A stretch of DNA of 64,000 bases from Calditrichia bacterium (GTDB taxonomy: Bacteria; Calditrichota; Calditrichia; RBG-13-44-9; J075), in contig JBOEGD010000012.1 in the NCBI GenBank assembly GCA_050633245.1, positions 131,059 to 195,058 of the forward strand, read 5' to 3'. A model generated the notes under the pieces. It was given only the letters and a program-made list of their open reading frames with translations, ran no database searches and was not told where the DNA came from. Below, one piece after another: positions 9,174-64,000 of the stretch (position 1 is its first letter; every line of letters starts with the position of its first letter). A program made the translations under genes and the position numbers.

Positions 9174-10475
9174 TTATTCCTTTTTCAATTTCTTGTCACT
9201 CAACTCTTCGAACAAACGCGCAAGCTGACCGACCTGATACTCACTTGTATAGAAAGCCAGATTTTCTTCATTAGCAAGTAACGTTGTTCCATTTGCCTGC
9301 CAATATGCATACCAACGCTGTAGAAAGCCGGCAATTCCGGGAATATCGTCGTAGGTAAACAGCTCACCACTCGCTGTTTCCTTCAACATGTGTTGCGAAA
9401 CGCTCGGCTTCACACCCAACGTTAAGATCGGCTTCCGCAGAGCCAGATAATCATATGTTTTTGCACCTACATTCTTATCGGCATAGGCACTTTGCGCGAC
9501 CGGACGAAACAATAACGCACTTTTTTTTGCAAACTGCATTAGTTCACTATGCGCCATGTAGGGCAGCCGCTGAATGTCCAAATGGCTATAGGAATTAAAT
9601 AGTTCATCAAACCCTTTGTAGGTCCGCCCGACAAAGCTGACGCTCACCTTGCCTTGCATTTCACTGGGAAGAGAATCGATCGACTTAAAAAGTGGCTCCG
9701 GATTTTGATAATTGCTAAGGCTTCCGATAAAAAGGATTGAGAACGTGTCCACATCGGCAGTAATATCCTGCAGCGGTTCAAATCCATTCTGAATAACCTC
9801 ATAGCGGTTTTCGGCCTTCTTTCCAAGCATATCTTTAACGCCTTCGCTTACTGTTATCACGGCATCTGCGGATTTCAGTACGCCTTTTTCCAGACGCGCA
9901 TCAAGGACACTACTAAACCGGTTCTTTTTCAGGCTGGCCGACCAAAAAGCCTCTGTCCATGGATCGCGGAAGTCTGCAACCCAGGGAACTCCGCTATGTT
10001 TCGCCAGTTTTTTTGCAATGAGCTGAACCGTATGCGGTGGAGAGGATGCGAATATCAGATCGATATTTTCTTCTTTTAGTATCCGCTTTCCTTCGTGTGT
10101 GGCCTTTGGAATCCAGCCAATTCGCGCATCCGGAATAAACACATTTGCACGCACCCAGGTAGCAATCTTGTTTTTGAGGCCGCCATTCTTATTCTCATTC
10201 AAGACGAAGGTTGGCAGCTTTTCACTATCTTGCTTCCCTGTTAGTTTCCGATAGATTTTGTAGGGCTCCAGAATTGAGGTGCGATAAACCCGACAACTTT
10301 CCGGAACCTTTTGCAACAGACTTTCATCCATCGCCGGATAGTCTCCATCCTCTACCGTCAATACGATGGGTTGCCATCCAAACTGTGGCAGCAGGCGTGC
10401 AAACTTCAACACTCGCTGAACTCCCGGACCGCCAGCGGGTGGCCAATAGTAGGTAATAATGAGCACTTTCTTCAT
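9174..10475 (-). CDS. GT4 family glycosyltransferase
   Basis: KKVLIITYYWPPAGGPGVQR, SSPPH, WVADFRDPW, KTYDYLALRKPIL. Confidence 0.9.
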   Translation of the reverse strand: MKKVLIITYYWPPAGGPGVQRVLKFARLLPQFGWQPIVLTVEDGDYPAMDESLLQKVPESCRVYRTSILEPYKIYRKLTGKQDSEKLPTFVLNENKNGGLKNKIATWVRANVFIPDARIGWIPKATHEGKRILKEENIDLIFASSPPHTVQLIAKKLAKHSGVPWVADFRDPWTEAFWSASLKKNRFSSVLDARLEKGVLKSADAVITVSEGVKDMLGKKAENRYEVIQNGFEPLQDITADVDTFSILFIGSLSNYQNPEPLFKSIDSLPSEMQGKVSVSFVGRTYKGFDELFNSYSHLDIQRLPYMAHSELMQFAKKSALLFRPVAQSAYADKNVGAKTYDYLALRKPILTLGVKPSVSQHMLKETASGELFTYDDIPGIAGFLQRWYAYWQANGTTLLANEENLAFYTSEYQVGQLARLFEELSDKKLKKE

Positions 10476-10487
10476 CAGCAACGGCCT

Positions 10488-12428
10488 CTACTCAAAATAG
10501 GCCTCCAGTTCAAACTGCTTCTCTTCAAACTTATTACTGTTTAAATACATATCCTGCCAAATGCATAAACCAGTCAAAAGCCAAAGGTGAAAATAGTGCC
10601 AGCGCATCTTGGGATGCGGAGGAGTATCTAAAATTGCGCGAATATAATCGTAATTGAAAATTCCGTCGCGCTCAACCCGCTTCTTTGTGAGAATGCGCTC
10701 TGCAGTCGGCTTAAGGTCTTTTTGAAACTGCAAATACGAATTAAAGGTGAATCCCCACTTCTTTTTTCGGATAATGCGTTCGGGTAAATAGGGAGTCATG
10801 GCCTTGCGCAGCAGGTATTTGGTTTGCGTACTACGCATCTTCATTTTGGCAGGTATAGAAAATCCCAACTGAACCAAGTCCAGGTCGAGAAACGGGACGC
10901 GTTCTTCTACAGAGTTTGCCATAGACATACGGTCCTCTGTCAGCAGATAGTCATTCACCATCTTGCTCATAAACTCGGCATAGTAGACTTGCTCCAGTGC
11001 TGAACCACGCTTCTTATCGAATAATCCTTCGAACTCATTAATAATCGGTTGGATATTTTCGCTTAGAAACCCCGGAGAATAAATCTGTTTCCAGTGCGAC
11101 CGATCAAAATCCCAGGCATTGCGCAGTATTAAATAGGATTTTACAACATTCCCCGCCGCCAGTCCCATTTGTACGCCTCTACGATATTCATCTGTCGAAA
11201 ATGAGCCAAACTGCGTCTGAAGTGAATATGCCATTGAACTGAAGCGCGAAAGCACGTTTTTTTCCATTCCCGCAGGCACCAGCTTGTGAGAACTGTTTAG
11301 CAAATACATAAAGCGATGAATATCATATCCTGAAAAAAGCTCGTCACCACCAAGTCCTCCGAGAACGACCTTCACATGCTTCCCGACGAAGCGCGACATA
11401 AGGAAACCCTGTAGAAGGTTGATTTTTGGCTCTTCAGCATGCCAAATGACTTCCGGAAACAATCGCATCGGATTTAATTCCATCGTCAGTTCGTGATGAT
11501 CGGTGTCGTAAAACTTGGCCGTTTCACGAGCATCATCCAGCTCATCGGTGGGTTCATTAAATCCCATCGTAAAGGTGCTAATATCCTCCACTCCACATTC
11601 GCGCATCATGGCAACGATAGAGCCGGAATCCATACCTCCGGAAAGGTAAACCCCCAGCGGCACATCGCTCATCAGTTGCCGCTTAACGGCGTGCTTAAGC
11701 ACGTGAGGGATTTCTTCCAGCCAATCGTCTTCCGTACGGGAATGATCAATCTTATATTCAAGCGTGAAAAACGGTCTCTTTTCCTGAATAATTCCATCTT
11801 CGACAATCATGTAGTGTGCCGGTGGTAATCGATAAATATCTTTAAATAGCGTTGCGCTGGATTGGGTGTAGCGAAGATTAACATGATAGTGCAGCGATTG
11901 CTTATTCAGCTCTCTGGGAACGTCCGGGTGCAGCAGAATACACTTCTGCTCAGAGGCAAAAAGAAATCGTCCATTGTGAGCATAATAATGCAGTGGCTTA
12001 ATCCCAAAATGGTCACGCGCGAGCACAAGTTTGTCTTTGCCATCGCGTTTGTCGAGAATAGCAAATGCAAAAATACCGTTCAGGCGCGCAAAGGCATCCA
12101 CCCCCTGGTCTTCGTAGAGGCGCAGCACAACTTCGGTATCGGAGGCCGTCTTGAATACATACCCGCGCTCGGTCAGCTCGTCGCGTAATTCCTGATAGTT
12201 ATAGACTTCACCATTGTAAACGATGCAGAGATCGCGATTGGGAGTAAAAACCGGCTGATCGCCCGTAGCAAGATCGATAATGCTCAATCTGCGATGCCCC
12301 AGGCAAACATCACCATCCTGATGAACACTGAACGCATCGGGACCGCGATGAGCAAGCAACTTTACCATGCGCTTAACCAGTGTTTGATTGTCGCTGCCGC
12401 GCTCAACTATTCCACAAATTCCACACAT
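10488..12428 (-). CDS. asnB: Asparagine synthase (glutamine-hydrolysing)-like amidotransferase of a polysaccharide locus
   Basis: MCGICG, HRGPD, HRRLSIID, NGEVYN, LSGGMDS, GGDELFSGY, ERVPFLD. Confidence 0.93.
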   Translation of the reverse strand: MCGICGIVERGSDNQTLVKRMVKLLAHRGPDAFSVHQDGDVCLGHRRLSIIDLATGDQPVFTPNRDLCIVYNGEVYNYQELRDELTERGYVFKTASDTEVVLRLYEDQGVDAFARLNGIFAFAILDKRDGKDKLVLARDHFGIKPLHYYAHNGRFLFASEQKCILLHPDVPRELNKQSLHYHVNLRYTQSSATLFKDIYRLPPAHYMIVEDGIIQEKRPFFTLEYKIDHSRTEDDWLEEIPHVLKHAVKRQLMSDVPLGVYLSGGMDSGSIVAMMRECGVEDISTFTMGFNEPTDELDDARETAKFYDTDHHELTMELNPMRLFPEVIWHAEEPKINLLQGFLMSRFVGKHVKVVLGGLGGDELFSGYDIHRFMYLLNSSHKLVPAGMEKNVLSRFSSMAYSLQTQFGSFSTDEYRRGVQMGLAAGNVVKSYLILRNAWDFDRSHWKQIYSPGFLSENIQPIINEFEGLFDKKRGSALEQVYYAEFMSKMVNDYLLTEDRMSMANSVEERVPFLDLDLVQLGFSIPAKMKMRSTQTKYLLRKAMTPYLPERIIRKKKWGFTFNSYLQFQKDLKPTAERILTKKRVERDGIFNYDYIRAILDTPPHPKMRWHYFHLWLLTGLCIWQDMYLNSNKFEEKQFELEAYFE

Positions 12429-51705: not shown

Positions 51706-52407
51706 ATGAAAAACATTATTCACATTCAAAATCTGGTAAAGCGCTTCCCGGTGGGAGACGGATTTTTTACCGCCCTTACTGACATCAACATGGAGTTTAA
51801 GAAAGGCGAATTCGCCGGGCTGGTCGGCCCGAGTGGTTCAGGCAAAACCACGCTGCTAAACATCGTCGGGACACTCGATGGGCCAAGTGAAGGCACCGTT
51901 ACTGTTTTGGACAAGGATGTTGCGCAGCTCTCCCATAAAGAAGCAGCCGAGCTGCGCAATCAGCACATTGGCTTTATCTTTCAAACCTTTAATTTGCTAC
52001 CGGTTTATACTGCTTTCGAGAACATCGAGCTACCATTGCTCCTGCTCGGCATCAAGCCGGATGAGCGTAAAGAAATGGTGATGCAGGCTTTGGAATGGGT
52101 CGGCTTAACGGACAAGACGCACTCCCGTCCCGGACAGCTTTCCGGTGGACAAAGTCAGCGCGTGGCAATTGCGCGAGCTATCGTTAAGCGCCCGGAAATT
52201 ATCCTGGCCGATGAGCCGACGGCCAATCTCGATGCTGAGAATTCGCACCATATCCTGAAGATATTAAAGACTCTCAACAAGGAGCTGGATACCACCTTCA
52301 TCTTCTCAACACATGATGATAAGGTTATTCAATATCTGGATCGCAAGCTATCGCTGCTCGATGGCAAGCTGGACAAAGACGAATTGCTAACCGGGGCTCT
52401 ATCATGA
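51706..52407 (+). CDS. LolD/MacB-type ABC ATPase
   Basis: GPSGSGKTT, IGFIFQTFNL, LSGGQSQR, ADEPTANLD. Confidence 0.92.
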   Translation: MKNIIHIQNLVKRFPVGDGFFTALTDINMEFKKGEFAGLVGPSGSGKTTLLNIVGTLDGPSEGTVTVLDKDVAQLSHKEAAELRNQHIGFIFQTFNLLPVYTAFENIELPLLLLGIKPDERKEMVMQALEWVGLTDKTHSRPGQLSGGQSQRVAIARAIVKRPEIILADEPTANLDAENSHHILKILKTLNKELDTTFIFSTHDDKVIQYLDRKLSLLDGKLDKDELLTGALS

Positions 52408-53573
52408 TGCTATTTAGAATGGCATTGAAGCAGATATGGCGAGCCGGGTTACGCACTTGGCTAAACGTGCTGGTTTTAGCACTAACCATGGTTGTTATCG
52501 TTTTTGTGCAGGGTTTTAATCAGGGCATTATCGAGCAGGTGAGTACGACGATGATCAATTCGGAGATTGGAGGGGGGCAATATTGGCACGAAAAATATGA
52601 CCCCTATAATCCACTTTCGCTGGATTCCGCCCATGCTGAAATAAGCGCCAATGTGCAAAAGGCTATCGACCGTAGCGAACTAACGCCGATCCTTATTCGC
52701 CAGGCATCGCTTTATCCGGAAGGCCGACTCGTTCCTGCGATGATGAAAGGCATTCCAACCGATCAGAAAGTTCTGCAATTTCCGACAGCTGCCTTAAACG
52801 TCGATAACGGCAGTATTCCTGCACTTATTGGTGAACGCATGGCAAAGAGTACCGGGCTGCAAAAGGGAGACCTTGTAACCGTGCGCTGGCGAGACGCTAA
52901 TGGCACCTTTGATGCACGCGACATGGAAATTGCTGCAATCATGAAAACCGATGCTGTCGCCATAGACATGGGTCAGATCTGGCTACCTTTGGGTGTATTG
53001 CAGGAACTCACAGCAATGCCGAACGAGGCTACAATTCTGGTTTCTGCTCCAGACTACGTTGCCCAATCATTCAATGAGTGGAACTGGCAGAGCCATGATG
53101 TGCTGTTAAAAAATATCCGCGATTTGGTTCGCGCTCGCAATATCGGCTCCTCTGTTCTTTATTTACTACTGCTATTTCTCGGCCTGCTGGCAATTTTCGA
53201 TACCCAGATACTCTCGCTCTTCAAGCGGCGTAAGGAAATAGGCACTCTCGTTGCGATGGGCATGACAAAAGAAAAAGTCATCCGCCTCTTCACTCTGGAA
53301 GGTGGCATTCACGGCATTCTGGCAATTGGGTTAGCAGCAATATTGGGAACCCCTCTGTTCTATTATATGGCAATCGCGGGTGCTCCAATTCCTGAGTTGT
53401 CTCAAGATGCCGGACTGGCAATCGGCAGCGTGCTCTATCCACGCTATACGCCTATGCTCATTATTGGCACCATAACTCTTATGTTAATCGCCGTAACCTT
53501 TGTGGCGTGGTTACCGGTTCGTCGCATCGCGCGCATGAAACCCACTGATGCCTTACGCGGGAGGACACAATGA
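52404..53573 (+). CDS. FtsX/LolE-like ABC permease
   Basis: N-terminal TM, large periplasmic domain, RRKEIGTLVAMG, three C-terminal TMs; ATGA overlap. Confidence 0.88.
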   Translation: MMLFRMALKQIWRAGLRTWLNVLVLALTMVVIVFVQGFNQGIIEQVSTTMINSEIGGGQYWHEKYDPYNPLSLDSAHAEISANVQKAIDRSELTPILIRQASLYPEGRLVPAMMKGIPTDQKVLQFPTAALNVDNGSIPALIGERMAKSTGLQKGDLVTVRWRDANGTFDARDMEIAAIMKTDAVAIDMGQIWLPLGVLQELTAMPNEATILVSAPDYVAQSFNEWNWQSHDVLLKNIRDLVRARNIGSSVLYLLLLFLGLLAIFDTQILSLFKRRKEIGTLVAMGMTKEKVIRLFTLEGGIHGILAIGLAAILGTPLFYYMAIAGAPIPELSQDAGLAIGSVLYPRYTPMLIIGTITLMLIAVTFVAWLPVRRIARMKPTDALRGRTQ

Positions 53574-54838
53574 TTTCATTTCTGATAAAGGGTCTGCTGC
53601 GAGATCGCTCACGCAGCCTGTTTCCGCTTTTTGTAATTATTGCCGGCGTCACGCTCACCGTAATCATGCACTGCTGGATAGAAGGCATGTTTGTTAATAT
53701 GACCCAGTCCAGCGCGAACTTTCAGTCCGGCCATGTAAAGGTCACGACCAGAGCCTACGCCAAAGAAGCGAGTCAGCTACCGAACGATTTGGCAATCACT
53801 GGTCTCGACACCTTATTGCAGGAATTAAGTGCAGACTACCCGGGCATGAACTGGGCCAGCCGTATCCGCTTTGGTGGACTGCTGGATATTCCTGATGCGG
53901 ATGGCGAGACACGAGTTCAGGGTCCGGCGCTTGGTCTGGGTATAGAGCTACATTCTTCTGGTGCAGAGAAGCAGCGATTGAATCTAACTGAGGCACTCGA
54001 TGCGGGGTCACTGCCTGAGAAACCCGGCGATATGTTGATAAGTTCAAGTCTGGCTGAAAAACTTGGTGTTAAGCCCGGCGATGCAGCCACGCTAATCGGC
54101 AGCACTATGCACGGCAGTATGGCAATGGCCAATTTTTCGATTTGCGGTACCATTCGATTTGGCATGAACGCCCTCGATCGTGGAGCCTTTATCGTCGATT
54201 TGTCCGATGCTCAAATTGCGTTGGATATGCAGAACAGCACCGGCGAAATTCTCGGCTTTTTTAACGATGGCTACTTCGATCGTGAACGCTCCGAAGCGAT
54301 GGGAATTTCCTTCAATGCGCGACAAAATGCTGACGATGAGTTCGCACCACGCATGGAACCCCTTTCGGCACAGGGTGGTCTTGGTGATCTGTTGGATTTG
54401 GCCAGCGTGGTAATGGGAGTAATTATCTTCATGTTTATTTTTATCATGTTCATTGTGCTCTGGAATGCCGGACTTATGGGCAGCATTCGCCGTTATGGCG
54501 AGATCGGTGTTCGTATGGCAATCGGGGAACCGAAGAGCCACCTCTATGGCACATTGCTCATTGAGTCTATGGTGCTTGGATTGATCGGTTCGATTATCGG
54601 AACGGCGATTGGCCTAAGTATAGCCTATTATCTGCAGAAAGTTGGATTTGACATGGGATCGATGATGAAGGATTCATCAGTCATGATGAGCAACGTGATG
54701 CGCGCGCGCATCACGCCGACGTCCTGGCTCGTCGGCTTTTTACCAGGTCTTATTGCAACTGTGCTGGGAACCGCGATTGCGGGCATCGGTATATATAAAA
54801 GACAAACCGCTCAACTGTTTAAGGAGCTTGAAGTGTAA
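53570..54838 (+). CDS. FtsX/LolC-like ABC permease
   Basis: Same topology; RRYGEIGVRMAIG; ATGA overlap. Confidence 0.88.
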   Translation: MISFLIKGLLRDRSRSLFPLFVIIAGVTLTVIMHCWIEGMFVNMTQSSANFQSGHVKVTTRAYAKEASQLPNDLAITGLDTLLQELSADYPGMNWASRIRFGGLLDIPDADGETRVQGPALGLGIELHSSGAEKQRLNLTEALDAGSLPEKPGDMLISSSLAEKLGVKPGDAATLIGSTMHGSMAMANFSICGTIRFGMNALDRGAFIVDLSDAQIALDMQNSTGEILGFFNDGYFDRERSEAMGISFNARQNADDEFAPRMEPLSAQGGLGDLLDLASVVMGVIIFMFIFIMFIVLWNAGLMGSIRRYGEIGVRMAIGEPKSHLYGTLLIESMVLGLIGSIIGTAIGLSIAYYLQKVGFDMGSMMKDSSVMMSNVMRARITPTSWLVGFLPGLIATVLGTAIAGIGIYKRQTAQLFKELEV

Positions 54839-54887
54839 ATTGTAGTAACGATTAAGCTTAGGAACTAAGCATAAACATACTTTTTTT

Positions 54888-54935
54888 GTCACCCCGAGCC
54901 CTTCGACTTCGCTCAGGATAGACCCTGTCGAGGCG
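54888..54935. repeat. REP-like element
   Basis: GTCACCCCGAGCCCTTCGACTTCGCTCAGG...GTCGAGG; 12-mer CTTCGACTTCGC also at 8469-8480. Confidence 0.6.
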
Positions 54936-54997
54936 CTTATCAAAATATCATCAACGCCAATTTCTCTGATACGGATCTTTAAGGAGCTTGAAGCATA

Positions 54998-55750
54998 ATG
55001 AAGAACCTGAAAATTGCACTCTGCTTATTCTCTATCTGTCTTATTACGCTCGCCTCGGCACAAACTGACGCCCCCACAGCCGAAGAGATATTAAAAAAGC
55101 TCGATGACAATGTACTCTCCAAGAGTCGCGTCTTTCAGTCCAGCATGATTATCAATGGTCGACGTGCCAAGCGCAAGGTATCATCCAAATCCTGGATCGA
55201 AGGCGAAGACCGTTCCTTTACCGAATATGTCGCCCCTGCTCGTGAGAAAGGCACTAAAATGCTTAAGCTGGACGATCAGCTGTGGACTTACTCACCATCT
55301 ACCGATCGTACCATTCGCATCTCCGGTCACATGCTACGGCAGTCGGTTATGGGCTCCGACCTATCCTATGAAGACATGATGGAAGACCGCAGCTTGTTGG
55401 ACGCCTACAACTGTGCAATTGTCGGCACTGACAGCGTAAACGGACGTCCCTGCTGGATACTCGATCTTACAGCAAAGGAAAAAGACGTTGCCTATGCCCA
55501 GCGCAAATTATGGGTTGATAAGGAACGCTATCTCGGGCTAAAAGAAGAACGCTATGCTCGTAGCGGCAAACTGCTTAAAACAACCGAAATTAAAGACATG
55601 AAGAGGGTTGGCAATCGCTGGGTGGTTACGCATGTCATCTTCAAAGACATGTTAAAAAAGGGCGAGGGCACCGAGTTTTTAATCGAAGATATTGAGTTCG
55701 ACGTGGACATTCCCGGGCACGTGTTTTCCAAGGCGTCATTGCGGCGGTAA
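54998..55750 (+). CDS. Outer-membrane lipoprotein-sorting protein (LolA-like)
   Basis: Signal peptide; PAREKGTKMLK, LWTYSPS, MGSDLSYEDM, SGKLLK. Confidence 0.88.
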   Translation: MKNLKIALCLFSICLITLASAQTDAPTAEEILKKLDDNVLSKSRVFQSSMIINGRRAKRKVSSKSWIEGEDRSFTEYVAPAREKGTKMLKLDDQLWTYSPSTDRTIRISGHMLRQSVMGSDLSYEDMMEDRSLLDAYNCAIVGTDSVNGRPCWILDLTAKEKDVAYAQRKLWVDKERYLGLKEERYARSGKLLKTTEIKDMKRVGNRWVVTHVIFKDMLKKGEGTEFLIEDIEFDVDIPGHVFSKASLRR

Positions 55751-55827
55751 TAACATGGGTGAATTGGATAAAGAATAAAGATATTTACGGCGAGGTGCCG
55801 AGCTATGTCTCGACACCGAAATAACAG

Positions 55828-55854
55828 TAGCGCGGGTCAAGACCCGCGTTTTTT
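55828..55854 (+). terminator. Intrinsic terminator / GTAG-type hairpin after the Lol-like operon
   Basis: GTAG-CGCGGGTC-AA-GACCCGCG-TTTTTT. Confidence 0.75.
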
Positions 55855-55903
55855 GTAGATAATAATGCACATTCAAAGCAGGATATATTTATTGCAAATA
55901 GAT

Positions 55904-56044
55904 ATGAAAAATATTAAAAACGAAGACATCGAATTCGATGTAGGTATTCCAGGGCACATGTTTTCCAAGGCAGCGTTGACATAGCCGGGATATACAGGCC
56001 GGTGTCGAGCTATGTCTCGACACCGAAATAATCGTAGCGCGGGG
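55904..56044 (+). repeat. Second copy of the lolA-like 3' end plus downstream hairpin
   Basis: Mini-ORF MKNIKNEDIEFDVGIPGHMFSKAALT* (55904..55984), then GGTGTCGAGCTATGTCTCGACACCGAAATAA..GTAGCGCGGG matching 55794-55836. Confidence 0.88.
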
Positions 56045-56263
56045 TGCTGAAGCAGTAATATCTTCACAACGGAACAGACTGATAATACGTGAGATCGGCA
56101 CAAATTTTTACAAAGACTGGAACAAGGTAGAGCGACTTTTCAATCGGTTAAAGCATTGCCGGAAAATCGCTACTCGATATGATAAAGCAGCCCAGAATTA
56201 TCTATCATTTGTTTATGCAGCATCAATAAAGGTTTTGTTGCTTTAATTGTATACACGACTTAG
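56043..56263 (+). mobile_element. IS5-family transposase C-terminal remnant with probable right end
   Basis: GAEAVISSQRNRLIIREIGTNFYKDWNKVERLFNRLKHCRKIATRYDKAAQNYLSFVYAASI; stop 56244-56246. Confidence 0.85.
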
Positions 56264-56517
56264 AGTAAACAGCCTAGGGTTCAAAAATCAAATTGTTAAA
56301 TAATCAAAATACTTGCTAGATTTAGTCTGATTGAAGGTGATTTAAGCTAACTAACTGACACTTCATGCAAGTATAGCTGGTGTGTATTAATTTCTACTTT
56401 AATTTTTATTAAACAGACATATAAGAATTAGCATAAACAGGTGCTCATTAAATTACAACTCCTTTGAGAGCAGTATATTAGTCTTATCGAATAAGGTATT
56501 AAACAAAAAACCAGATA

Positions 56518-56706
56518 TTATTTTTGTCTTATATAATAAATAATATTAAAAACAACTAATAAGAAGAGTAAGATTATTTGATATCCTCCAATACAAGGGG
56601 GGCGATACACCCCCTCAGGAGTAGGTCCACACAATGGCTGTAGCATATGAATTATACACAAAGAAAATAGGTTTAGAAGTGTCAGACGTATTTTATTGTA
56701 TGTCAT
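56518..56706 (-). CDS. Small two-TM protein with a Cys/Pro loop
   Basis: 62 aa; TM-PLCGPTPEGVYRPPCIG-TM. Confidence 0.45.
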   Translation of the reverse strand: MTYNKIRLTLLNLFSLCIIHMLQPLCGPTPEGVYRPPCIGGYQIILLFLLVVFNIIYYIRQK

Positions 56707-56863
56707 ATTATCGGAACCTAATATGCAATGCTGTTAATATTTCTTTGATTAATACTCCCCAATAAGCCCCATGACATTTTATTCTCAACCCACATCTGAG
56801 GCAGAGTTTAAACTGTCAACAATCGCATCAATATTTTTTCCCTGCAAAACCTCAAGCCCCACG

Positions 56864-57319
56864 TTAATTATAAACCACCGGGTTTTTAAAAAAGCTGTTA
56901 ATATATAGTGTCACAACTTCATTATTAACATAATATTCCCCACCGCGCTCAAAGAAGAATCGATCCAGAAAAATCTTTTCCTGCTCCCCGCTCGAGTAAG
57001 CAATCGTAACTATTGCTCTGCTATCAATAGGCCGATTAGTATAAGAAGGGTCACGCTTTACGGCTTTATCTAATATCCTGAGAAACGTCGCAATTTTTGA
57101 AGGTTCATTCAAAGTCACTGTTTCACATTGGTTGTTAAAATACTGATAAAACTTATCACGGTCTACCCGACTAATTGATGTTACAGAAAAACAAACTCTG
57201 TCAATGGTAATTCGGCTAACCGAATCATTGTTACTATCTGTATCTATCGAAGACAAACAGCCTGAAGCGATTGTTATGCAACAGATCGTAAGGAGAATTT
57301 TGTACTGTAACTTTAGCAT
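56864..57319 (-). CDS. Hypothetical lipoprotein
   Basis: Lipobox IASGC; 151 aa in an AT-rich region. Confidence 0.6.
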   Translation of the reverse strand: MLKLQYKILLTICCITIASGCLSSIDTDSNNDSVSRITIDRVCFSVTSISRVDRDKFYQYFNNQCETVTLNEPSKIATFLRILDKAVKRDPSYTNRPIDSRAIVTIAYSSGEQEKIFLDRFFFERGGEYYVNNEVVTLYINSFFKNPVVYN

Positions 57320-57551
57320 TAGCTGTCTTCAAAATTAGAGGTTATTGCCCGGGTTCTCGCTACCCGCCTGTTATATCTTAAAGAGAATAGGAAGGAATTA
57401 GTATTCATTACTTCTTCAAATCCGCACTCTTACTATTTGACGAACCTGCTGGTAAATAGTTTACAGCCTACCTAATTCCCTCTAGAGCATTCAGAGAAAA
57501 GTAAGGCGTTAGTGTTTTGGGAAAGAAGTCTAATTCTGGAAGAGAGCCCAA

Positions 57552-57977
57552 CTATTCGGTTCCAAAACTTTTGTACGGACTCCCTATAATATGTCTCCGT
57601 AAGCGTTGAGTAACCAGAAACGCAACCAACGCTATCAACCAAACGGGTTCATTGAATCGTATTGCAAGGAGAAGAAAGATGGACGCGAGTATTGTACATT
57701 CCTTAAAGAGCAGGGAGGATAAGCTGCTTTTTTCGTAATGAATTAATATTAACTCAAGAGATAAAAGTAGAATCAATAGGGGGATCCAGGCAAAAGCCCA
57801 GTAAAAAACAACAGTTATAACTCCACCCACGAAACCAACGGCTAATGCATTTGCTAACGTTTCATTACCGAAAATATAATTTTGAGACACTCCTAATATG
57901 GCACAATAAAGATAAAGGACAAAAAGCACTCCTAATAAATTTATCCAATTCGTTTTGATAAACTCGAACTTGTTCAT
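57552..57977 (-). CDS. Hypothetical multi-TM membrane protein (immunity-like)
   Basis: IKTNWINLLGV start; four to five hydrophobic helices. Confidence 0.65.
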   Translation of the reverse strand: MNKFEFIKTNWINLLGVLFVLYLYCAILGVSQNYIFGNETLANALAVGFVGGVITVVFYWAFAWIPLLILLLSLELILIHYEKSSLSSLLFKECTILASIFLLLAIRFNEPVWLIALVAFLVTQRLRRHIIGSPYKSFGTE

Positions 57978-58075
57978 AAATGCTTTCAGCTTGAGTGAAT
58001 AGTATGCTTGCTCAGTACCCCTTATATTGATGGAAGGTCAATCTAACTTTAACTTTACACGCCTAATCAGGGACT

Positions 58076-61000
58076 CTAAACAACTCTATCTGTAAGATCA
58101 ATACGCGCTTTAATTGCAGCTAAAATTGCTTTGTGCCTATTCGTAAGACTCATTGAGGATTCATCAGCCAGGGCAATGATCGACTTTGCCAGCTTGGCTT
58201 TTTTACTTGCACCAGTTACTTTTTTCAGCTTCGCGAGCAAATTGTCTGAAGGAGAGACATTTAATTCTATACATGAGCTAAGGATGCAATCAAACAACAA
58301 ATGAGAGTTGCGAGGGAACTTCTCTTGAGCCTCCAGAAAAGTATCGAGCATCATAAAACAGACCAAGCTGTGTAACTGAGAAACCTGCGATATTTGCGAG
58401 AGACGGTCGGCAAGACGATTTGTTTTCATCCAGCCACCTCTGGCAAGCTTTATTAAGGTTTCGCTCATTTTAGCTGGATGCATACGACTATCTTCAATGC
58501 TCTCAATCATCAAATCCACTGCATGTCCACTTGAATCGGCATCCTTGCTTATCAGCGCTATCGCCACTGCAACATATGTCATCTCGGTCCAGGGTAAGAC
58601 AGAGTTAAATATTGGGGCAAGAAATGCATAATTCGGTTGAAAGGTATTTGCATTATCGTTCACGCGACTGACAAAAAAATAGGTCGCATTTTTTAAACTA
58701 CCATCCAAATTTGCAGGCCACGTCTGCATCGCCCACTGAATTAACCAACTGCCTGAGTAATTAAGATAGCTATCCCAGAACCATTTGCGGCTACTCGTTT
58801 TCGTGAGCAAAAATGTCGGCAATTTATTCGCAGCAAGTCCCTTTGGGGGCAGAGCTGATATTCCCTGATTGAACAATGTTAAAAGGCTGGAAATTACTCC
58901 ATTCTTATTTTCATTTTTTCTATAGTCGCTTAATGGGGTGGTCCGTATTTCTATAACCGGATGTATATGAATACTATCATAAACCTCTTGTTTTTCCATT
59001 CTGGACCTCCAGCTGTAGCCTGCAGGAACAAGGACGTCCGGGAGGCATTTTTTCACCCCCAGGTTGGCTAATTCAATTGTTGAATCGCCTAATGGGTTCC
59101 TTGCACGATCTGCAACAAGCCATACATCCCTCAATAAGCGATCTCGGCTATTTGGTCCTTCTTTTCCCCCGAGTGCCCAGCGTAATGCTCGACCAATACC
59201 TCCATCAATTTCTTGTGCATTTATTAAGGCCGAATCTCGATTGTCAGGTGCAATGCGCAAAAGAGCCTGTAGCAAATCGTAACGCGGTATCGCTTCATTC
59301 TTACTTTGTAGATGCAAAATCCGCTCAACTAAGATATGAGCCTCTATCCAACCGTTTAGGTGAGTTGGTGCGGACAGCGAAATGGTTGCATGACGTTTCG
59401 CAATGCGCGGAATCATTTCTCTGATTCGAAGATCCATAAAGACATGAACATTAGCATTTTTGTATATAAGCTGGTTTGCTTTTGCAGGTTTACTGGTTAT
59501 CCAGGTCTTGAGAAGATCCTTCAGTACAATGCACAACCCGCCGTATCCACTTATCAAGCCACGTGAAGCTTCCGAATAGGTCGGATTGTAAATCCGCTTC
59601 AAGAGTGCTTCCGTCTTAAGTGCAAAGTCCGCAGGTCTTCTGTCACACAGTCGGCATATACCATCAAGAATCCGTTCAACTTCATCCGCAGAATCTACAA
59701 TTTCCACCGCATGAGAAACTGCCTTTAGTAGCTCATCAAATGTTTCTATCGGCTTGATTCGTTCGAGCCCATCTAAAAGACGCAGTGATTGAAAGGGAAT
59801 GTTCAGCGGGGGAGGAATTTCGGTTGGAAAGATTTCGCCAAGATAGGCATCCAAACCAAGCAGTGCTCGTTTTTCAGAGGATATGTCTTCGATTGTCTTT
59901 TTCAAGACATTCCATTCCGAAGCAAAATCAACCTCAGAAGTTGTCGTTTCGACAGACTCCGGGCTTAGCGACAATAAACGATGCCGCAAACTCGGGTGCA
60001 CTATATCCTGATATCTTTCTATTCCTTCAAAGGCAGATACGCTGTATTCTTTCAATTCCTCAAGAATAGATAGTATTATTTCTTGGATATCACTGCTGTC
60101 ATGTATAATTGCATCAACGCATAATGGAACAAGTGAGTGTTTGGCAAGATCGTTATTTTTATAAAGACGACGCAATATTTGTAGATAAGTTTTTGCTTGA
60201 CCTTTACCCGGCAAGCTTAAGACCGATGGAAACGAGTCTATTAAATCATGTGCAGCTAACCGTCCAGCATTTTCAAGTTTTCGAATCATCTTAAGTGCAA
60301 ACGTAACCACATGCCCAACCGGGTCACTCAATAAATCAATATACTTGGATTTGCGTTCGTCCAGTTCCTCTAAAGAGGGATCTAAAAACAGATGAAATTT
60401 GTAGAAGCCGCTCTTAAAGCGTGGTTCAAAATCGCGACTCAGGGCATTAAGGCTTTCATCCAACAACCGTGCTCTATCAAGTATTCCCTTATTGGAAAGA
60501 TCAAGAAGCGACTCGGGCCAATCTTGATAGTTTTGCAGTGCATTATTAGAAGTTTTATGCCAACCTTCAGCAAAAGCGGATGTCTGAAAGTAAAACAGTT
60601 GCCATACCTCGTTGCTCAAAAGCTCTGGATCATTGATAAGTGCCTGGTTGACAGGAATATAGTTCTTCTTAGAATCGTCTTGCCAAGTTAACAGGCCAAT
60701 TACAAAAAATTGTATATATCCCTCTGATATAGCTACATCACATAGGCCATCCTTCATCCATCCACGCAGCAGCACCCAATCCATACTTGCAAATTCCTGA
60801 CTCAATTCATGTTCTATCCAGGCAGAAAGCCATTTTGGTTTTAGAGTTCGAACGATCTTATCAATCTGCCGTCGTATTTCTTTATCATAATATATCTGCC
60901 AGAACTTCACTTTTTTGGTTCTGGAAAGAGGACAAAGAATAAAAACTGCAAGAGAGCTATTGTAGTATACATCCGGCGGGGAAGGGGCTTTGGCATCAAA

Positions 61001-61204
61001 TCGGCCTTTGATGTTCTGAATTACGTCTTTCACAACATTGGAAGAACGCAGAGCAATAATTGATTGTCTCTGTATGGTAGAATATAGTTTGTACGTGAAG
61101 ACGGAAAGTGACCGGCGCTCTTTTTCAGTTAAGGTAAGTAGAGAATCGATGAGCTCGTCGGAAGGTGCTTCATAGATCAGTTTTTGCAGTTCGTTTTGAT
61201 CCAT
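58076..61204 (-). CDS. Large alpha-helical protein (DUF6493-like), partner of the SWIM protein
   Basis: About 1040 aa from ATG 61204; LDRARLLDESL, LSAPTHLNGWI, DLLQALLR; family name recalled, not verified. Confidence 0.75.
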   Translation of the reverse strand: MDQNELQKLIYEAPSDELIDSLLTLTEKERRSLSVFTYKLYSTIQRQSIIALRSSNVVKDVIQNIKGRFDAKAPSPPDVYYNSSLAVFILCPLSRTKKVKFWQIYYDKEIRRQIDKIVRTLKPKWLSAWIEHELSQEFASMDWVLLRGWMKDGLCDVAISEGYIQFFVIGLLTWQDDSKKNYIPVNQALINDPELLSNEVWQLFYFQTSAFAEGWHKTSNNALQNYQDWPESLLDLSNKGILDRARLLDESLNALSRDFEPRFKSGFYKFHLFLDPSLEELDERKSKYIDLLSDPVGHVVTFALKMIRKLENAGRLAAHDLIDSFPSVLSLPGKGQAKTYLQILRRLYKNNDLAKHSLVPLCVDAIIHDSSDIQEIILSILEELKEYSVSAFEGIERYQDIVHPSLRHRLLSLSPESVETTTSEVDFASEWNVLKKTIEDISSEKRALLGLDAYLGEIFPTEIPPPLNIPFQSLRLLDGLERIKPIETFDELLKAVSHAVEIVDSADEVERILDGICRLCDRRPADFALKTEALLKRIYNPTYSEASRGLISGYGGLCIVLKDLLKTWITSKPAKANQLIYKNANVHVFMDLRIREMIPRIAKRHATISLSAPTHLNGWIEAHILVERILHLQSKNEAIPRYDLLQALLRIAPDNRDSALINAQEIDGGIGRALRWALGGKEGPNSRDRLLRDVWLVADRARNPLGDSTIELANLGVKKCLPDVLVPAGYSWRSRMEKQEVYDSIHIHPVIEIRTTPLSDYRKNENKNGVISSLLTLFNQGISALPPKGLAANKLPTFLLTKTSSRKWFWDSYLNYSGSWLIQWAMQTWPANLDGSLKNATYFFVSRVNDNANTFQPNYAFLAPIFNSVLPWTEMTYVAVAIALISKDADSSGHAVDLMIESIEDSRMHPAKMSETLIKLARGGWMKTNRLADRLSQISQVSQLHSLVCFMMLDTFLEAQEKFPRNSHLLFDCILSSCIELNVSPSDNLLAKLKKVTGASKKAKLAKSIIALADESSMSLTNRHKAILAAIKARIDLTDRVV

Positions 61205-61208
61205 CCGT

Positions 61209-62564
61209 TTATACTTCCTGCGAGCCGGAGGTGTCTTCATACAATTGCGAGGCGAGAATATGTTTACATGGACCACGCTGTCCCTGGTATTTGCTAAACC
61301 ACGGGCAGGTGCACTCATCTCCTGAAACGTTAAGACGCACGTGATACCGTGCATTACTTCCAATAACGGCAAATTCTCTGGTTTTATTTTCAGTGGAAGA
61401 ACCAGGCAATACAGCTTTTTCTTCAAGAAGTTTTCGGGCATTTTTTAATCTGGGCTGCATACTTTCAATTTTTTCCAAATCGAAGGGCAACTCACGGTGA
61501 AAGTACTTTTGCATCATAACATCATAGCCAGCTAAGCCTCGTGCACCCAATACAGCAAGCCCCGACAAAATAGCATCTTTCGGCTCATCCATTTGTTTAG
61601 CAAGATCATCAACATTAATTTGATTCTGCCAGCGAAGCTGAGATCGAATGCCAGGTAAAATTGCTTGCCAATTGCTGTCTGCCAAGGCAAACAGGTTCTG
61701 TCCTTCTCCGGTAAACCCACGATACAATTCAGGACTAATGACCAAAAAGAAACGCCCTTCATTAAACGATACTTCCCAGCCACTCACCAGAGAACTGCTG
61801 TCGTACCAAATTCGCAGACTATTTGCCTGCGCCAGTAGAGGCTCCAGAATACGTATTCTGTGAGTACCGCTAATTCGTATTGCATTGCGACTTTCTCTAT
61901 TACTCAGACGAAGCGATTTACCCGCAGGGACAACGAACGTTGGTCGTTTTGAAATATTTGCCTTAGGTAGAGTTCTGATAAATTTTAGAGCTTCGAGTGC
62001 ATTTATTTCCAGAGCAGGTTTCAGACCCGCCTGGTATGCCTGTACTTCACTAAAGCCTTTTATCCACCGCAAGGGCAGCTTTACCTTCTTTTCAATTGTC
62101 TTATTTTCCTTACGACTCAGAACGACTTCATCTTCCCCTATTGAAAATGTTACGTCTTCATCGTCTCTCAATCGCATTAGCGCATTTCGCATAGGCACAT
62201 TAAAATCAACATTTGTAGTCCCTCTATTTTTGATGCTGCTTTCAAAAGCAGTCTCAAAAAGGTCGACGCGCACATAAACACCACAGCAACCGCTAAATCC
62301 TTCCAAGCGAATCAGCTCATCGTTACTTGTAAGAACCGGGTCGAGAAGGGCAGGTCTTGGAAGAAAAAAATGTGTCCGCACAACATCAGACAAAACCAAG
62401 AACATGTTGCCGATAGTTCTGGGATTAAGTAGCCTCCCTTCAAAAAAGTATGGGTTTTGTTGCTTCCCATTGCAGGTAGCAAGAGTCAGATGGGGATGGT
62501 GTTCACGCGTTTGAACATGCGACTGATAAGGATAAATATACGTATAGTCAAGTGCTGCAGACAT
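61209..62564 (-). CDS. SWIM zinc-finger protein
   Basis: C-terminal CTCPWFSKYQGQRGPCKHILA; N-terminal EGFSGCCGVYVR, GTTNVDFN, LPLRWIKGF. Confidence 0.88.
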   Translation of the reverse strand: MSAALDYTYIYPYQSHVQTREHHPHLTLATCNGKQQNPYFFEGRLLNPRTIGNMFLVLSDVVRTHFFLPRPALLDPVLTSNDELIRLEGFSGCCGVYVRVDLFETAFESSIKNRGTTNVDFNVPMRNALMRLRDDEDVTFSIGEDEVVLSRKENKTIEKKVKLPLRWIKGFSEVQAYQAGLKPALEINALEALKFIRTLPKANISKRPTFVVPAGKSLRLSNRESRNAIRISGTHRIRILEPLLAQANSLRIWYDSSSLVSGWEVSFNEGRFFLVISPELYRGFTGEGQNLFALADSNWQAILPGIRSQLRWQNQINVDDLAKQMDEPKDAILSGLAVLGARGLAGYDVMMQKYFHRELPFDLEKIESMQPRLKNARKLLEEKAVLPGSSTENKTREFAVIGSNARYHVRLNVSGDECTCPWFSKYQGQRGPCKHILASQLYEDTSGSQEV

Positions 62565-62763
62565 AGTATTCCTCTATTGGGCTTGCATTTATAAGACAAG
62601 GAATAAGATTTCGAAGATAAATAATGTAAAAGAAAGCTTCGCTTAAAATCAACCCTTATATACGCCTTAATTCACTATTAATTATTCAACTATTCGCTAT
62701 CTGAAGGAAGGATTCTGAAAGTTTTTTGTTGTATAGCTCAGTAGCATGGATTGTAAACTACGC

Positions 62764-62932
62764 TACTGTTGTAAAGGAAATGAAGCAGATAGGTGATCGC
62801 TGGGTTGTCACGCCCGTGGTTTTCAGAGACATGTTGAAAAAGGGTAAAGGCACTGAGTTTTTAATCAAGGATATCGAGTTCGATGTAGATATTCCCGGGC
62901 ATGTATTTTCAAAGGTGGCGGTGCAGCGTTAA
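62764..62932 (+). repeat. Third copy of the lolA-like 3' end (about 55 codons)
   Basis: KEMKQIGDRWVVTPVVFRDMLKKGKGTEFLIKDIEFDVDIPGHVFSKVAVQR* versus KDMKRVGNRWVVTHVIFKDMLKKGEGTEFLIEDIEFDVDIPGHVFSKASLRR*. Confidence 0.92.
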
Positions 62933-63209
62933 CCCATATGGGGTAACGATATTTTCCAACTAGTGCTATCAATTCCTGCTCAACCTCTTTTGTATCACAT
63001 AACTGGGAAAGCCGCTCATTAGTTCCTGCGTTAAAACTTTCAGAAGCCAGGTTATTTAGCTTTAGTTCGAGGCGGCTTAACAAAGCATCAAGTTCATCCC
63101 AGAGCTCATCCGTCATAATAGACTCACTCTTTTTACGGGTTCTTGCCTACATATCGACATCACCGCGATAGTGTTTATAGATTTTCAGATGTGATTTGGT
63201 GAGTTTCAT
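62865..63209 (-). pseudogene. Small hypothetical gene with a premature TAG, coupled to the upstream gene
   Basis: ATG 63209 overlaps TGA of 63206..63961 (ATGA); MKLTKSHLKIYKHYRGDVDM*ARTRKKSESIMTDELWDELD...; TAG at 63147-63149; 3' end runs into repeat copy 3. Confidence 0.65.
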
Positions 63210-63961
63210 AATCCATATTCCGGGCATATTCTCTTAGGATAGCCATCTTCTATTTTTTTCAATAATTCTGATATTCTAAAGCATAGTTTTGTATTTGACC
63301 CAGGACGAGGCACATAAAAAAGACCTTCACTCATTGAAGCCATCTGTTTTACATCATCACTTATTTTTTCCAATTTACCATTCGTATATTTAAAGAGACC
63401 TTTTTCCTTATAGTCTTTTTGTATTGCTAACTCGTTATATGATTCTCCAATGTTATAGACTTTCTTTTCAACACTAAGGTGTACCTCCGAGATACGCTGG
63501 TATATTTTCCCTCTATAATAGACCAGTTTAATAGAGGGATCTGACACTGAAATAAAATGGTTATCTTTGCTTTTATACCATCCAGCAAATCCTATTGGGT
63601 TACCAGAACCTGAGTTCACATACGAAATATATCTATCACCATCAATTTGAAGGTTCTCACCTTTATCATACAAATGGTAAATGATTTCTTCATCAGTCTC
63701 TTTTTGTTTTACAAACAGAGCCAGCCAATTTGCAGGTACGTCTGTAGCAAAGGGGGGGGATGACATGCTTCTGAGCTTTGTCAGGCTATCAGGACTACTC
63801 CAAAGAATATTGTCTATCTCATCATCTTCTATTAAATCTTCCCTTTGGAAACAATCCACATATTTATATGATACATAGCGAGAGCATATGTAAAAAAGGA
63901 TCACAACAACCAAGAAAAGAAAGGCAAATTTAGAATATTTCTTTAGCATTATAGATACCAA
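63206..63961 (-). CDS. Hypothetical membrane-anchored protein
   Basis: N-terminal TM FAFLFLVVVILFYIC; 251 aa; AT-rich. Confidence 0.65.
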   Translation of the reverse strand: MVSIMLKKYSKFAFLFLVVVILFYICSRYVSYKYVDCFQREDLIEDDEIDNILWSSPDSLTKLRSMSSPPFATDVPANWLALFVKQKETDEEIIYHLYDKGENLQIDGDRYISYVNSGSGNPIGFAGWYKSKDNHFISVSDPSIKLVYYRGKIYQRISEVHLSVEKKVYNIGESYNELAIQKDYKEKGLFKYTNGKLEKISDDVKQMASMSEGLFYVPRPGSNTKLCFRISELLKKIEDGYPKRICPEYGL

Positions 63962-64000
63962 ATTAATAGTTATACCTAGGAAATAATCTTGTAGTGTGGG

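Follow-up and report, generated by a model that had tools for sequence, protein, structure and literature searches.

Displaced ends of a LolA_like gene bracket imported DNA behind a conserved operon in a Calditrichia bacterium

We analysed a stretch of 64,000 nucleotides from the draft genome of a Calditrichia bacterium (GenBank assembly GCA_050633245.1, contig JBOEGD010000012.1), in which the 3′ end of a gene for a LolA_like protein is found three times in the same orientation. The whole stretch is called the window here and corresponds to G000:C12:131059-195058, where G000 is this genome. The assembly consists of 59 contigs with scaffold gaps, and the part of the window under study, 54998-64000, is free of N throughout. 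The operon that ends in this gene and the three gene ends are the following.

51706..54838, plus strand: ABC ATPase gene and two FtsX-type permease genes (Pfam ABC_tran 5e-36, FtsX 3e-16 and 3e-15)
54998..55750, plus strand: intact LolA_like gene of 250 codons, the last in the operon (51706-55750); PF17131, E 3e-62
55592..55750, plus strand: the present 3′ end of that gene (copy 1, "A-type"), repeat family D1/D2; 72.7% amino acid and 75% nucleotide identity to the third copy over 55 codons
55918..55984, plus strand: second copy, the last ~20 codons, in frame from 55922 and with its own stop at 55982-55984
62770..62932, plus strand: third copy ("B-type"), the last ~54 codons and a stop at 62930-62932; PF17131, 4e-9, profile positions 132-183 of 184

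The intact gene matched the PF17131 profile over its whole length (1-184 of 184) with 209.9 bits against a cut-off of 30, and the full-length relatives closest to it are 81-82% identical. The gene order ABC ATPase-FtsX-FtsX-LolA_like was found or partly seen in all 11 relatives fetched (11/11), and also in L050, a metagenome contig of 1.05 Mb. This conserved operon is the proposed homology anchor for the imports discussed below.

A first-pass annotation, made from the letters of the window, had noted that the gene end recurs in the same orientation at about 20 and about 55 codons, and this was borne out, with the copies now placed at 55918-55984 and 62770-62932. The repeat finder paired 55592-55750 with 62774-62932 (159 nt, 77%) and joined 55681-55741, 55918-55978 and 62863-62923 in a family of three copies (79% each). 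When the whole genome was searched by tblastn with the last 80 residues of the LolA_like gene, the third copy was returned with an E-value of 7.6e-24 and the second with 3e-5, together with a fourth copy of 76 codons (3e-38) that lies outside the window at C11:592604-592828, the very end of contig C11. These E-values indicate that the copies are not chance matches. The fragments start at different codons of the gene (175, 196 and 231). The second copy shows altered conserved residues (D to G, V to M) and a stop that comes one codon early, and in the third a change of H to P and the alteration of the last five residues, at otherwise conserved residues, were the signs of decay.

Next, the divergence among the copies was analysed. 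Pairwise nucleotide identity was 74-84%, and the ends were 73-85% identical in amino acids. The differences at first, second and third codon positions, compared by chi-square with an even spread, numbered 9/6/26 between the intact end and the third copy (p = 2e-4), 3/2/10 between the intact end and the second (p = 0.022), and 6/6/25 between the intact end and the fourth (p = 6e-5), in agreement with the earlier observation that the differences fall mainly at third positions. By the Nei-Gojobori method, the proportion of synonymous differences (pS) among the copies was 0.54-0.83 and that of nonsynonymous differences (pN) 0.06-0.15, with a dN/dS of 0.04-0.13 in five of the six pairs; the intact end and the second copy were too saturated for dS. 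The dN/dS comparison had been named as a check on the idea that each copy was once a selected gene end, and its outcome supports that idea. Since synonymous sites are near saturation and the protein has been kept, each copy must have evolved as a working gene end in a separate lineage. Read from these substitutions, the copies are mutually foreign, and each was, on sequence grounds, once the end of a functional gene in another lineage before it arrived here.

The same divergence pattern speaks against decay in place. An artefact or a local event, that is, an assembly chimera at the repeats or a tandem duplication followed by decay where it stands, is highly improbable. The draft state of the assembly, with its scaffold gaps, would allow for a chimera, but the copies are too dissimilar to mislead an assembler and no N lies in the region. 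In addition, among six sequencing runs only X1, an unrelated run, holds words of this genome (share 0.08), and its contigs match parts of the cargo between the copies at 88-98% and ribosomal genes at ~98% (best 8 of 104 pieces); they are too short to span the junctions, and holes occur in core genes too. As for the local event, decay in place cannot yield a third-position bias together with a near-saturated pS.

The relative L050 was then compared for an empty site. Its lolA-like protein is 81% identical, its operon is syntenic, and the gene (10001-10756) is followed directly by a small convergent frame with 68% amino acid identity over 59 residues to an 83-aa gene of the window, which lies immediately at the third copy. 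The site is empty in L050, as had been looked for. The genes concerned on the right side of the locus in the window are these.

62865..63116, minus strand: native gene next downstream, small, conserved and convergent (83 aa), with a 3′ end that overlaps the third copy on the opposite strand; no Pfam family
63206..63961, minus strand: 251-aa frame without a known family, not present in L050 at the corresponding position

Positions 62771-63209 of the window, covering the third copy and the 83-aa gene, are collinear with the lolA end and its neighbour in L050 (67% over 486 nt), and therefore the third copy sits at the ancestral junction. This agrees with the earlier proposal that an insertion restores the gene and leaves displaced ends, the outermost fragment keeping its ancestral junction with the next gene. 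By this comparison, the stretch of 7182 bp that extends from about codon 196 of the intact gene to the third copy is an insertion that brought a substitute gene end, and the end of copy 1 was probably imported together with the DNA behind it. Two nested fragments fit two successive events. The locus is a genuine scar of gene transfer, comparable scars having been described at other genes, and the tail of the gene has been replaced at least twice.

The ends were of two types. The A-type comprises the intact end together with the second and the C11 copies, which have residues in common; the intact end and the second copy share a hairpin-plus-terminator module as well, and the A-type ends are nearest to each other, with 84% nucleotide identity between the intact and the C11 end. 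The B-type third copy has residues in common with L050 and also with P0002 and P0003, the closest proteins in the database, and is 85.5% identical in amino acids to the L050 end, versus 72.7% to copy 1. Compared with L050, P0002 and P0003, the gene body (residues 25-195) showed an amino acid identity of 86-88% and the intact end one of 82-84%.

Between the copies, the following features were recognized.

55794..55855, plus strand: hairpin with 9-nt arms and a 6-nt loop, then a G+C stem and a T run, terminator-like (from the sequence, inverted repeat I1)
55856..55917, no strand: A+T-rich spacer of ~62 nt, the sole sequence between the first terminator and the second copy; no Pfam match in any frame
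55990..56043, plus strand: the hairpin again, with a terminator that is cut off behind the first half of its stem; 85% to 55783-55836 over 54 nt, with 26 nt identical
56037..56246, plus strand: IS5-type DDE transposase, of which a C-terminal remnant of ~65 codons is left; phrog_4716 (E 8e-11) matched over positions 188-254 of its 268
56247..56863, no strand: A+T-rich non-coding stretch of 0.6 kb, G+C 0.32; no Pfam match in its frames
56864..57319, minus strand: cargo, protein of 151 aa that looks like a lipoprotein by eye (signal peptide, Cys); Pfam, PADLOC and PHROGs gave no match
57552..57977, minus strand: cargo, hydrophobic protein of 141 aa, likewise unmatched in Pfam, PADLOC and PHROGs
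58076..61108, minus strand: cargo, large DUF6493/DUF7824/DUF7825 protein (Pfam 2e-25, 3e-22 and 6e-14)
61209..62564, minus strand: cargo, 451-aa SWIM zinc-finger protein, partner of the DUF6493 protein (PF04434 4e-6; PADLOC SWIM_XIII 6e-56)

The G+C content was 0.405 in the inserted stretch, 0.492 in the operon and 0.453 in the genome. All six intact frames between and after the copies (6/6) are on the minus strand, as had been stated of the intact cargo genes; in L050 the genes behind lolA are all convergent as well, and the strand of the cargo is therefore as expected from a donor's homologous locus. The open frame of the DUF6493 gene reaches 61441 and overlaps the SWIM gene by 233 nt (61209-61441), with the likely start being an internal Met at 61108, which would place the pair ~100 nt apart. 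No homologue of the DUF6493 protein was detected in the 85 other genomes of the phylum at E<=1e-10. The SWIM/DUF6493 pair is to be regarded as imported cargo and not as a member of the transporter operon, and a role in phage defence is a candidate function, as named by the PADLOC model.

The hairpins at 55794-55818 and 56000-56024 belong to a family with 9-nt arms, a conserved 6-nt loop and compensating stem changes between copies. A close copy with its own terminator stands behind a gene on C2 (C2:61811-61841), and looser copies, again with compensating stem changes, were found at C10:275780, C26:2502, C26:29791 and C45:27931; the terminator follows the hairpin at two places. With both strands of the genome counted, the 31-nt form was matched 3 times and the 18-nt core 10 times, and no Rfam model matched the family. 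The hairpin was considered as an attachment (att) site and rejected, as it is a repeat family that stands behind other genes. Because the hairpin module follows copies 1 and 2 and also another gene, the imported ends resemble the chromosomal lolA loci of relatives and not an attP. The IS5-type remnant abuts the cut terminator of the second hairpin, and this boundary is a deletion junction; the remnant also matched PF13586 at E 7-9e-4, under the curated cut-off, and no second copy of it was found in the genome by blastn.

It may be asked whether the intact end, rather than the outermost one, is native. In that case, the intact gene and its hairpin would belong to the resident, the third copy with the 83-aa and 251-aa frames would have been imported, anchored on the right in GHL10/rplQ with an illegitimate join on the left, and the SWIM/DUF6493 pair would be a separate insertion. 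Such an arrangement is compatible with the membership of the module behind copy 1 in this genome's hairpin family, with the residues that the third copy has in common with L050 and P0002, with the low G+C behind the third copy (0.36 over 62933-63961), and with the C11 fragment being evenly similar to the intact gene across codon 196 (0.836 over 75 codons, 0.842 over the last 55). However, it requires the loss of the native neighbour and leaves unexplained why the right junction of the cargo falls exactly at the start of the fragment, and the 83-aa gene is only 68% identical to that of L050, as in vertical descent and unlike a donor near L050. We consider this reading improbable.

The layout of restored gene and displaced ends had been taken in the first-pass annotation as an attB-like site for integrase islands and an integration hotspot. 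To search for the enzymes, profiles of Pfam (against the main frames and 21 stop-to-stop frames of the non-coding parts) and PHROGs were used. No integrase, excisionase, phage or conjugation gene was detected with Pfam and PHROGs in the main frames and the 21 intergenic frames, confirming the earlier remark that no integrase is visible, and the sole trace of a mobile element at the locus was the truncated IS5-type transposase. With the six tyrosine recombinases of the genome as tblastn queries, no match was obtained within C12:183-200 kb at E<=1; the genome-wide search did not extend to serine recombinase families. Past position 64000, where further copies and an integrase had been proposed to be sought, neither was found, and the contig continues with GHL10, rplQ-rpoA and the ribosomal protein operon. 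An 18-N run (C12:195059-195076) lies directly past the window end, where the assembly may lack some sequence between the 251-aa frame and GHL10.

A tRNA or tmRNA target was ruled out, with 0 ARAGORN genes in 54000-64000, and two Rfam matches (a snoRNA and a pestivirus internal ribosome entry site) scored far below the gathering scores and were taken as chance. The 190-aa tyrosine recombinases of C2 and C20 were likewise tried as the missing integrase and dismissed, as they adjoin genes with type IX secretion system (T9SS) tails and inverted repeats, with no duplicated target end; they look like invertases.

As separate observations on these recombinases, at G000:C20:169381-171780 and C2:37520-41048 a 190-aa tyrosine recombinase stands beside a ~550-aa protein with a T9SS tail, the two recombinase genes being 87% identical in nucleotides, and palindromic repeats lie just upstream of the C20 gene; these modules are possibly invertible switches. 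Two candidate mobile elements unrelated to the lolA locus were also seen, namely C17 (47 kb, G+C 0.38, with its own small recombinase) and C25:39685-40719, a 344-aa integrase-like gene at a contig end adjoining DUF3987 and helix-turn-helix genes.

When exact shared strings were compared pair by pair, no core common to all copies was found: the longest strings per pair were 8-18 nt in the coding part, and 26 nt was reached only in the hairpin. The intervening piece from copy 1 to copy 2 is only ~237 bp. In the phylum survey, a second gene end was found in 0/85 other genomes (E<=1e-6, a search that fragments of ~20 codons would escape), and among related loci in 0/91 (E<=0.01; 41/91 with at least 3 kb behind the gene). 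The attB-like site was not upheld, since neither an integrase nor a remnant of one nor a common core was found, the fragments start at three different codons and one "element" would measure ~237 bp; nor was the hotspot, given the surveys. No description of a lolA-like gene as an attachment site was found either; among the literature matches listed, all concern the Drosophila gene lola.

The surroundings of the locus also vary. Past the small frame, L050 continues with a five-gene VWA/DUF5682/AAA_5/DUF5691/SWIM cluster and then GHL10 and rplQ, and this points to the lolA-to-GHL10 interval as a variable region with a recurring theme. The cluster (L050:11154-18653, minus strand, VWA_CoxE/DUF5682/AAA_5/DUF5691/SWIM) is a SWIM-linked module unlike the one in the window. 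The DNA behind the lolA-like gene differs between this genome and L050 and the upstream operon is conserved.

Similar structures were looked for in the rest of the genome by screening the last 80 residues of each of 4755 open frames for orphan ends. The first pass gave 4061 rows, dominated by T9SS sorting domains, and raising the identity to 55% left 54 rows, which include lolA, comM and four weaker candidates. The C11 copy of the lolA end belongs to one further case, the hydratase locus (G000:C11:589160-592851 with C6:1-365). The enoyl-CoA hydratase gene is the last of a thiolase/PaaY-like/PaaZ-like/CpeT operon; C6 begins with its 5′ part, and the 3′ part lies in an assembly gap. The 76-codon lolA-like fragment begins 7 nt behind the hydratase stop and is followed by three opposite-strand frames (a 178-aa protein, a piece of an IS3-type OrfA and a SUKH/SMI1 protein) and then by a second copy of the last ~160 codons of the hydratase, with the assembly breaking inside the repeat. 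The last 22 nt of C11 are identical to the end of this copy, and its 5′ edge is matched by C6:1-67 with 92.5% identity. No integrase was found at the hydratase locus; 45 nt past the second copy of the hydratase end there is a 33-residue remnant of the 190-aa recombinase type (E 3e-5).

The comM gene (Mg-chelatase-like) is intact at G000:C1:422409-424451, 0.5 kb from the end of C1, and a diverged comM end of ~310 nt with stops and indels, 79% identical, was found on C15. Their differences by codon position were 7/5/51 (p 1e-14). The C15 end stands beside 32 kb of DNA with a G+C of 0.40 (C15:68935-101284) that carries conflict-type genes, namely S8 peptidase, CHAT-TPR, trypsin-EAD1 and EndoNS-trypsin nuclease genes, and no integrase was found in this 32-kb region. 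The C1 and C15 ends carry an identical 24 nt, as flanks of one insertion sequence would. Collectively, three genes of this genome, the lolA-like gene, the enoyl-CoA hydratase gene and comM, bear the same scar.

The explanation that we tentatively favour, as quite possible though somewhat short of probable, is that DNA was imported repeatedly from congeners, each time with a homologous anchor in the conserved operon and an illegitimate join within the end of the resident gene. The ancestral operon ABC-FtsX-FtsX-lolA would have run directly into the small convergent gene, as it still does in L050. A first import would then have brought DNA of a related species with its own lolA-like gene, the 3′ hairpin and terminator, the IS5-type element and the foreign SWIM/DUF6493 module. 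It would have entered on the left by homologous recombination in the conserved operon and on the right by an illegitimate join in the resident gene at about codon 196, and the resident's last ~54 codons (62770-62932) would have been moved 7.2 kb downstream with the native neighbour still attached. A second import of the same sort, whose tail was short and whose join fell at about codon 231, may have left the ~20-codon fragment and hairpin (55918-56043), and a later deletion would have removed the terminator part of this fragment and the 5′ part of the insertion sequence. No dedicated recombinase would be involved in this "3′-end displacement". The homologous crossover on the left, the illegitimate joins on the right and the order of events are what we infer. 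The ~237-bp piece between copies 1 and 2 is natural as a short foreign tail and odd as an integrative element.

Homology-driven cassette capture had been offered in the first-pass annotation as the alternative to an integrase. It fits better than an integrase does, and this part of the proposal stands, but it has to be supplemented with an illegitimate join, because the copies are too diverged for a plain homologous crossover, which is thus unlikely. A related scheme is the circle-and-crossover capture of the Rhs-tip model of Jackson et al., laid out in the part of PMC2935791 that deals with it. Here, recombination between repeats in a donor would give a circle with a lolA 3′ segment and cargo, and this circle would enter through one homologous, Campbell-type crossover, leaving both copies as donor/resident chimeras. 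The scheme would account for the variable fragment lengths, the missing integrase and a gene end travelling with cargo, and at the hydratase locus, where the copies appear near-identical over most of their length (the assembly collapsed them), a RecA crossover would be allowed. The lolA copies, however, are only 74-84% identical with no identical coding run above 18 nt, while homologous crossover needs about 30 bp according to work cited in a passage of PMC2884548, and the published model, as presented in the corresponding part of PMC2935791, requires very high identity. For the lolA-like gene we give this scheme little credence.

A stronger competitor is a decayed tandem array of site-specific integrative elements, formed by accretion and resembling integrase-less cis-mobilizable elements (CIMEs). 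Two elements with a replacement lolA end in their attP would have entered the 3′ part of the gene in succession, and the tyrosine or serine recombinase genes and most of the second element would later have been deleted. Here too the gene is restored by a substitute end, the displaced native end is distal with its native neighbour, and the nesting resembles attL-attI-attR. Deletion is evident at the locus in the truncated insertion sequence and the cut terminator, the A-type ends are mutually nearest (84% in nucleotides between the intact and C11 ends) and one of them stands elsewhere with cargo, and comM, also hit in this genome, is a classic island target. Tandem CIMEs without recombination genes are described in the section of PMC7563491 on such arrays. 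Set against this are the missing integrase, excisionase or remnant, the lack of a common identical core, the three different start codons, an "element" of 237 bp, the membership of the hairpin module that follows the imported ends in a chromosomal repeat family of this genome, and the surveys in which a second gene end was found in 0/85 phylum genomes and 0/91 related loci. We judge the decayed array to be unlikely, though clearly less so than the circle or a native intact end.

Several observations count against homology-anchored import as well. No homologous crossover on the left and no microhomology at the right joins was seen; around 62745-62775 the alignment with L050 was ambiguous. The layout, with a restored gene, a distal displaced end and tandem nesting, is equally expected from site-specific integration, and old islands commonly lose their integrase by deletion. 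The three A-type ends group together, and one of them lies with cargo at a foreign site on C11, which fits an end borne by a mobile element. The DUF6493 cargo is without a homologue in the 85 phylum genomes, implying a distant origin at some step. The amino acid distances to L050, P0002 and P0003 do not separate the native from the imported end, and the 18-N run just past the window could hide sequence.

Islands with a displaced gene end are usually credited to integrases, and here, in a little-studied phylum, is a clean case without integrase hallmarks. If homology-anchored illegitimate joining is true, conserved operon ends would be landing pads for foreign DNA that need no mobile-element enzyme, annotation pipelines that seek integrases would miss such islands, and orphan gene ends would be usable as dated markers of DNA donors and recipients. 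That islands in this lineage might regularly settle behind the last genes of conserved operons through end displacement without a recombinase is a broader proposal, about which we are doubtful. It would act on ordinary genes (lolA-like, enoyl-CoA hydratase, comM), with the carried gene end serving as a homing segment, and old ends could then travel with cargo between loci, as suggested by the lolA fragment behind the hydratase gene. So far, end displacement has been described for polymorphic-toxin genes.

The e14 element in icd is an example of a site-specific element in a gene 3′ end. Integrative elements of this kind and CIMEs resemble the lolA locus in the 3′ insertion, the carried replacement end, the distal native end, the tandem stacking and the existence of members without recombination genes; tandem accretion and integrase-less CIMEs are reviewed in a portion of PMC7563491 that cites Bellanger et al. 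2011. Unlike the lolA locus, arrays of integrative elements retain recognisable att repeats at a single fixed crossover point, and some member of the array or a related strain carries an integrase.

Homology-facilitated illegitimate recombination in transformable bacteria (de Vries and Wackernagel 2002, Prudhomme et al. 2002 and Meier and Wackernagel 2003, as quoted in passages of PMC5361080 and PMC2884548) resembles the locus in its one-sided homologous anchor, the illegitimate join of a foreign tail and the independence from an element-encoded enzyme. In those passages it is a laboratory mechanism, and the partial duplication of the anchor end that is required here is not established among the products they give. 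The same process has been proposed for orphan 3′ ends in the relevant part of PMC5361080.

The third known system is formed by the Rhs, contact-dependent inhibition (CDI) and type VI secretion system (T6SS) arrays, with strings of displaced 3′ ends reported behind Rhs and T6SS effector genes (Jackson et al. 2009, PMC2935791, and Kirchberger et al. 2017, PMC5361080, in the portions on orphan ends). In these accounts, and unlike here, each tip is a polymorphic toxin domain that comes with its own immunity gene, and selection acts on the tip. At the lolA locus the ends belong to homologous forms of a single periplasmic LolA_like protein, what is carried is unrelated DNA that lies behind the gene on the other strand, and no toxin tip with a cognate immunity gene was seen behind the fragments, where the ends are homologous and the frames lie on the opposite strand. 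In the same accounts, the incoming DNA has a conserved upstream part, no dedicated recombinase is known, and a circular intermediate or illegitimate recombination is proposed. As in these arrays, the lolA locus has an intact gene followed by same-strand 3′ fragments that differ in length (~20 and ~54 codons at this locus, with a further one of 76 codons on C11), with the oldest outermost.

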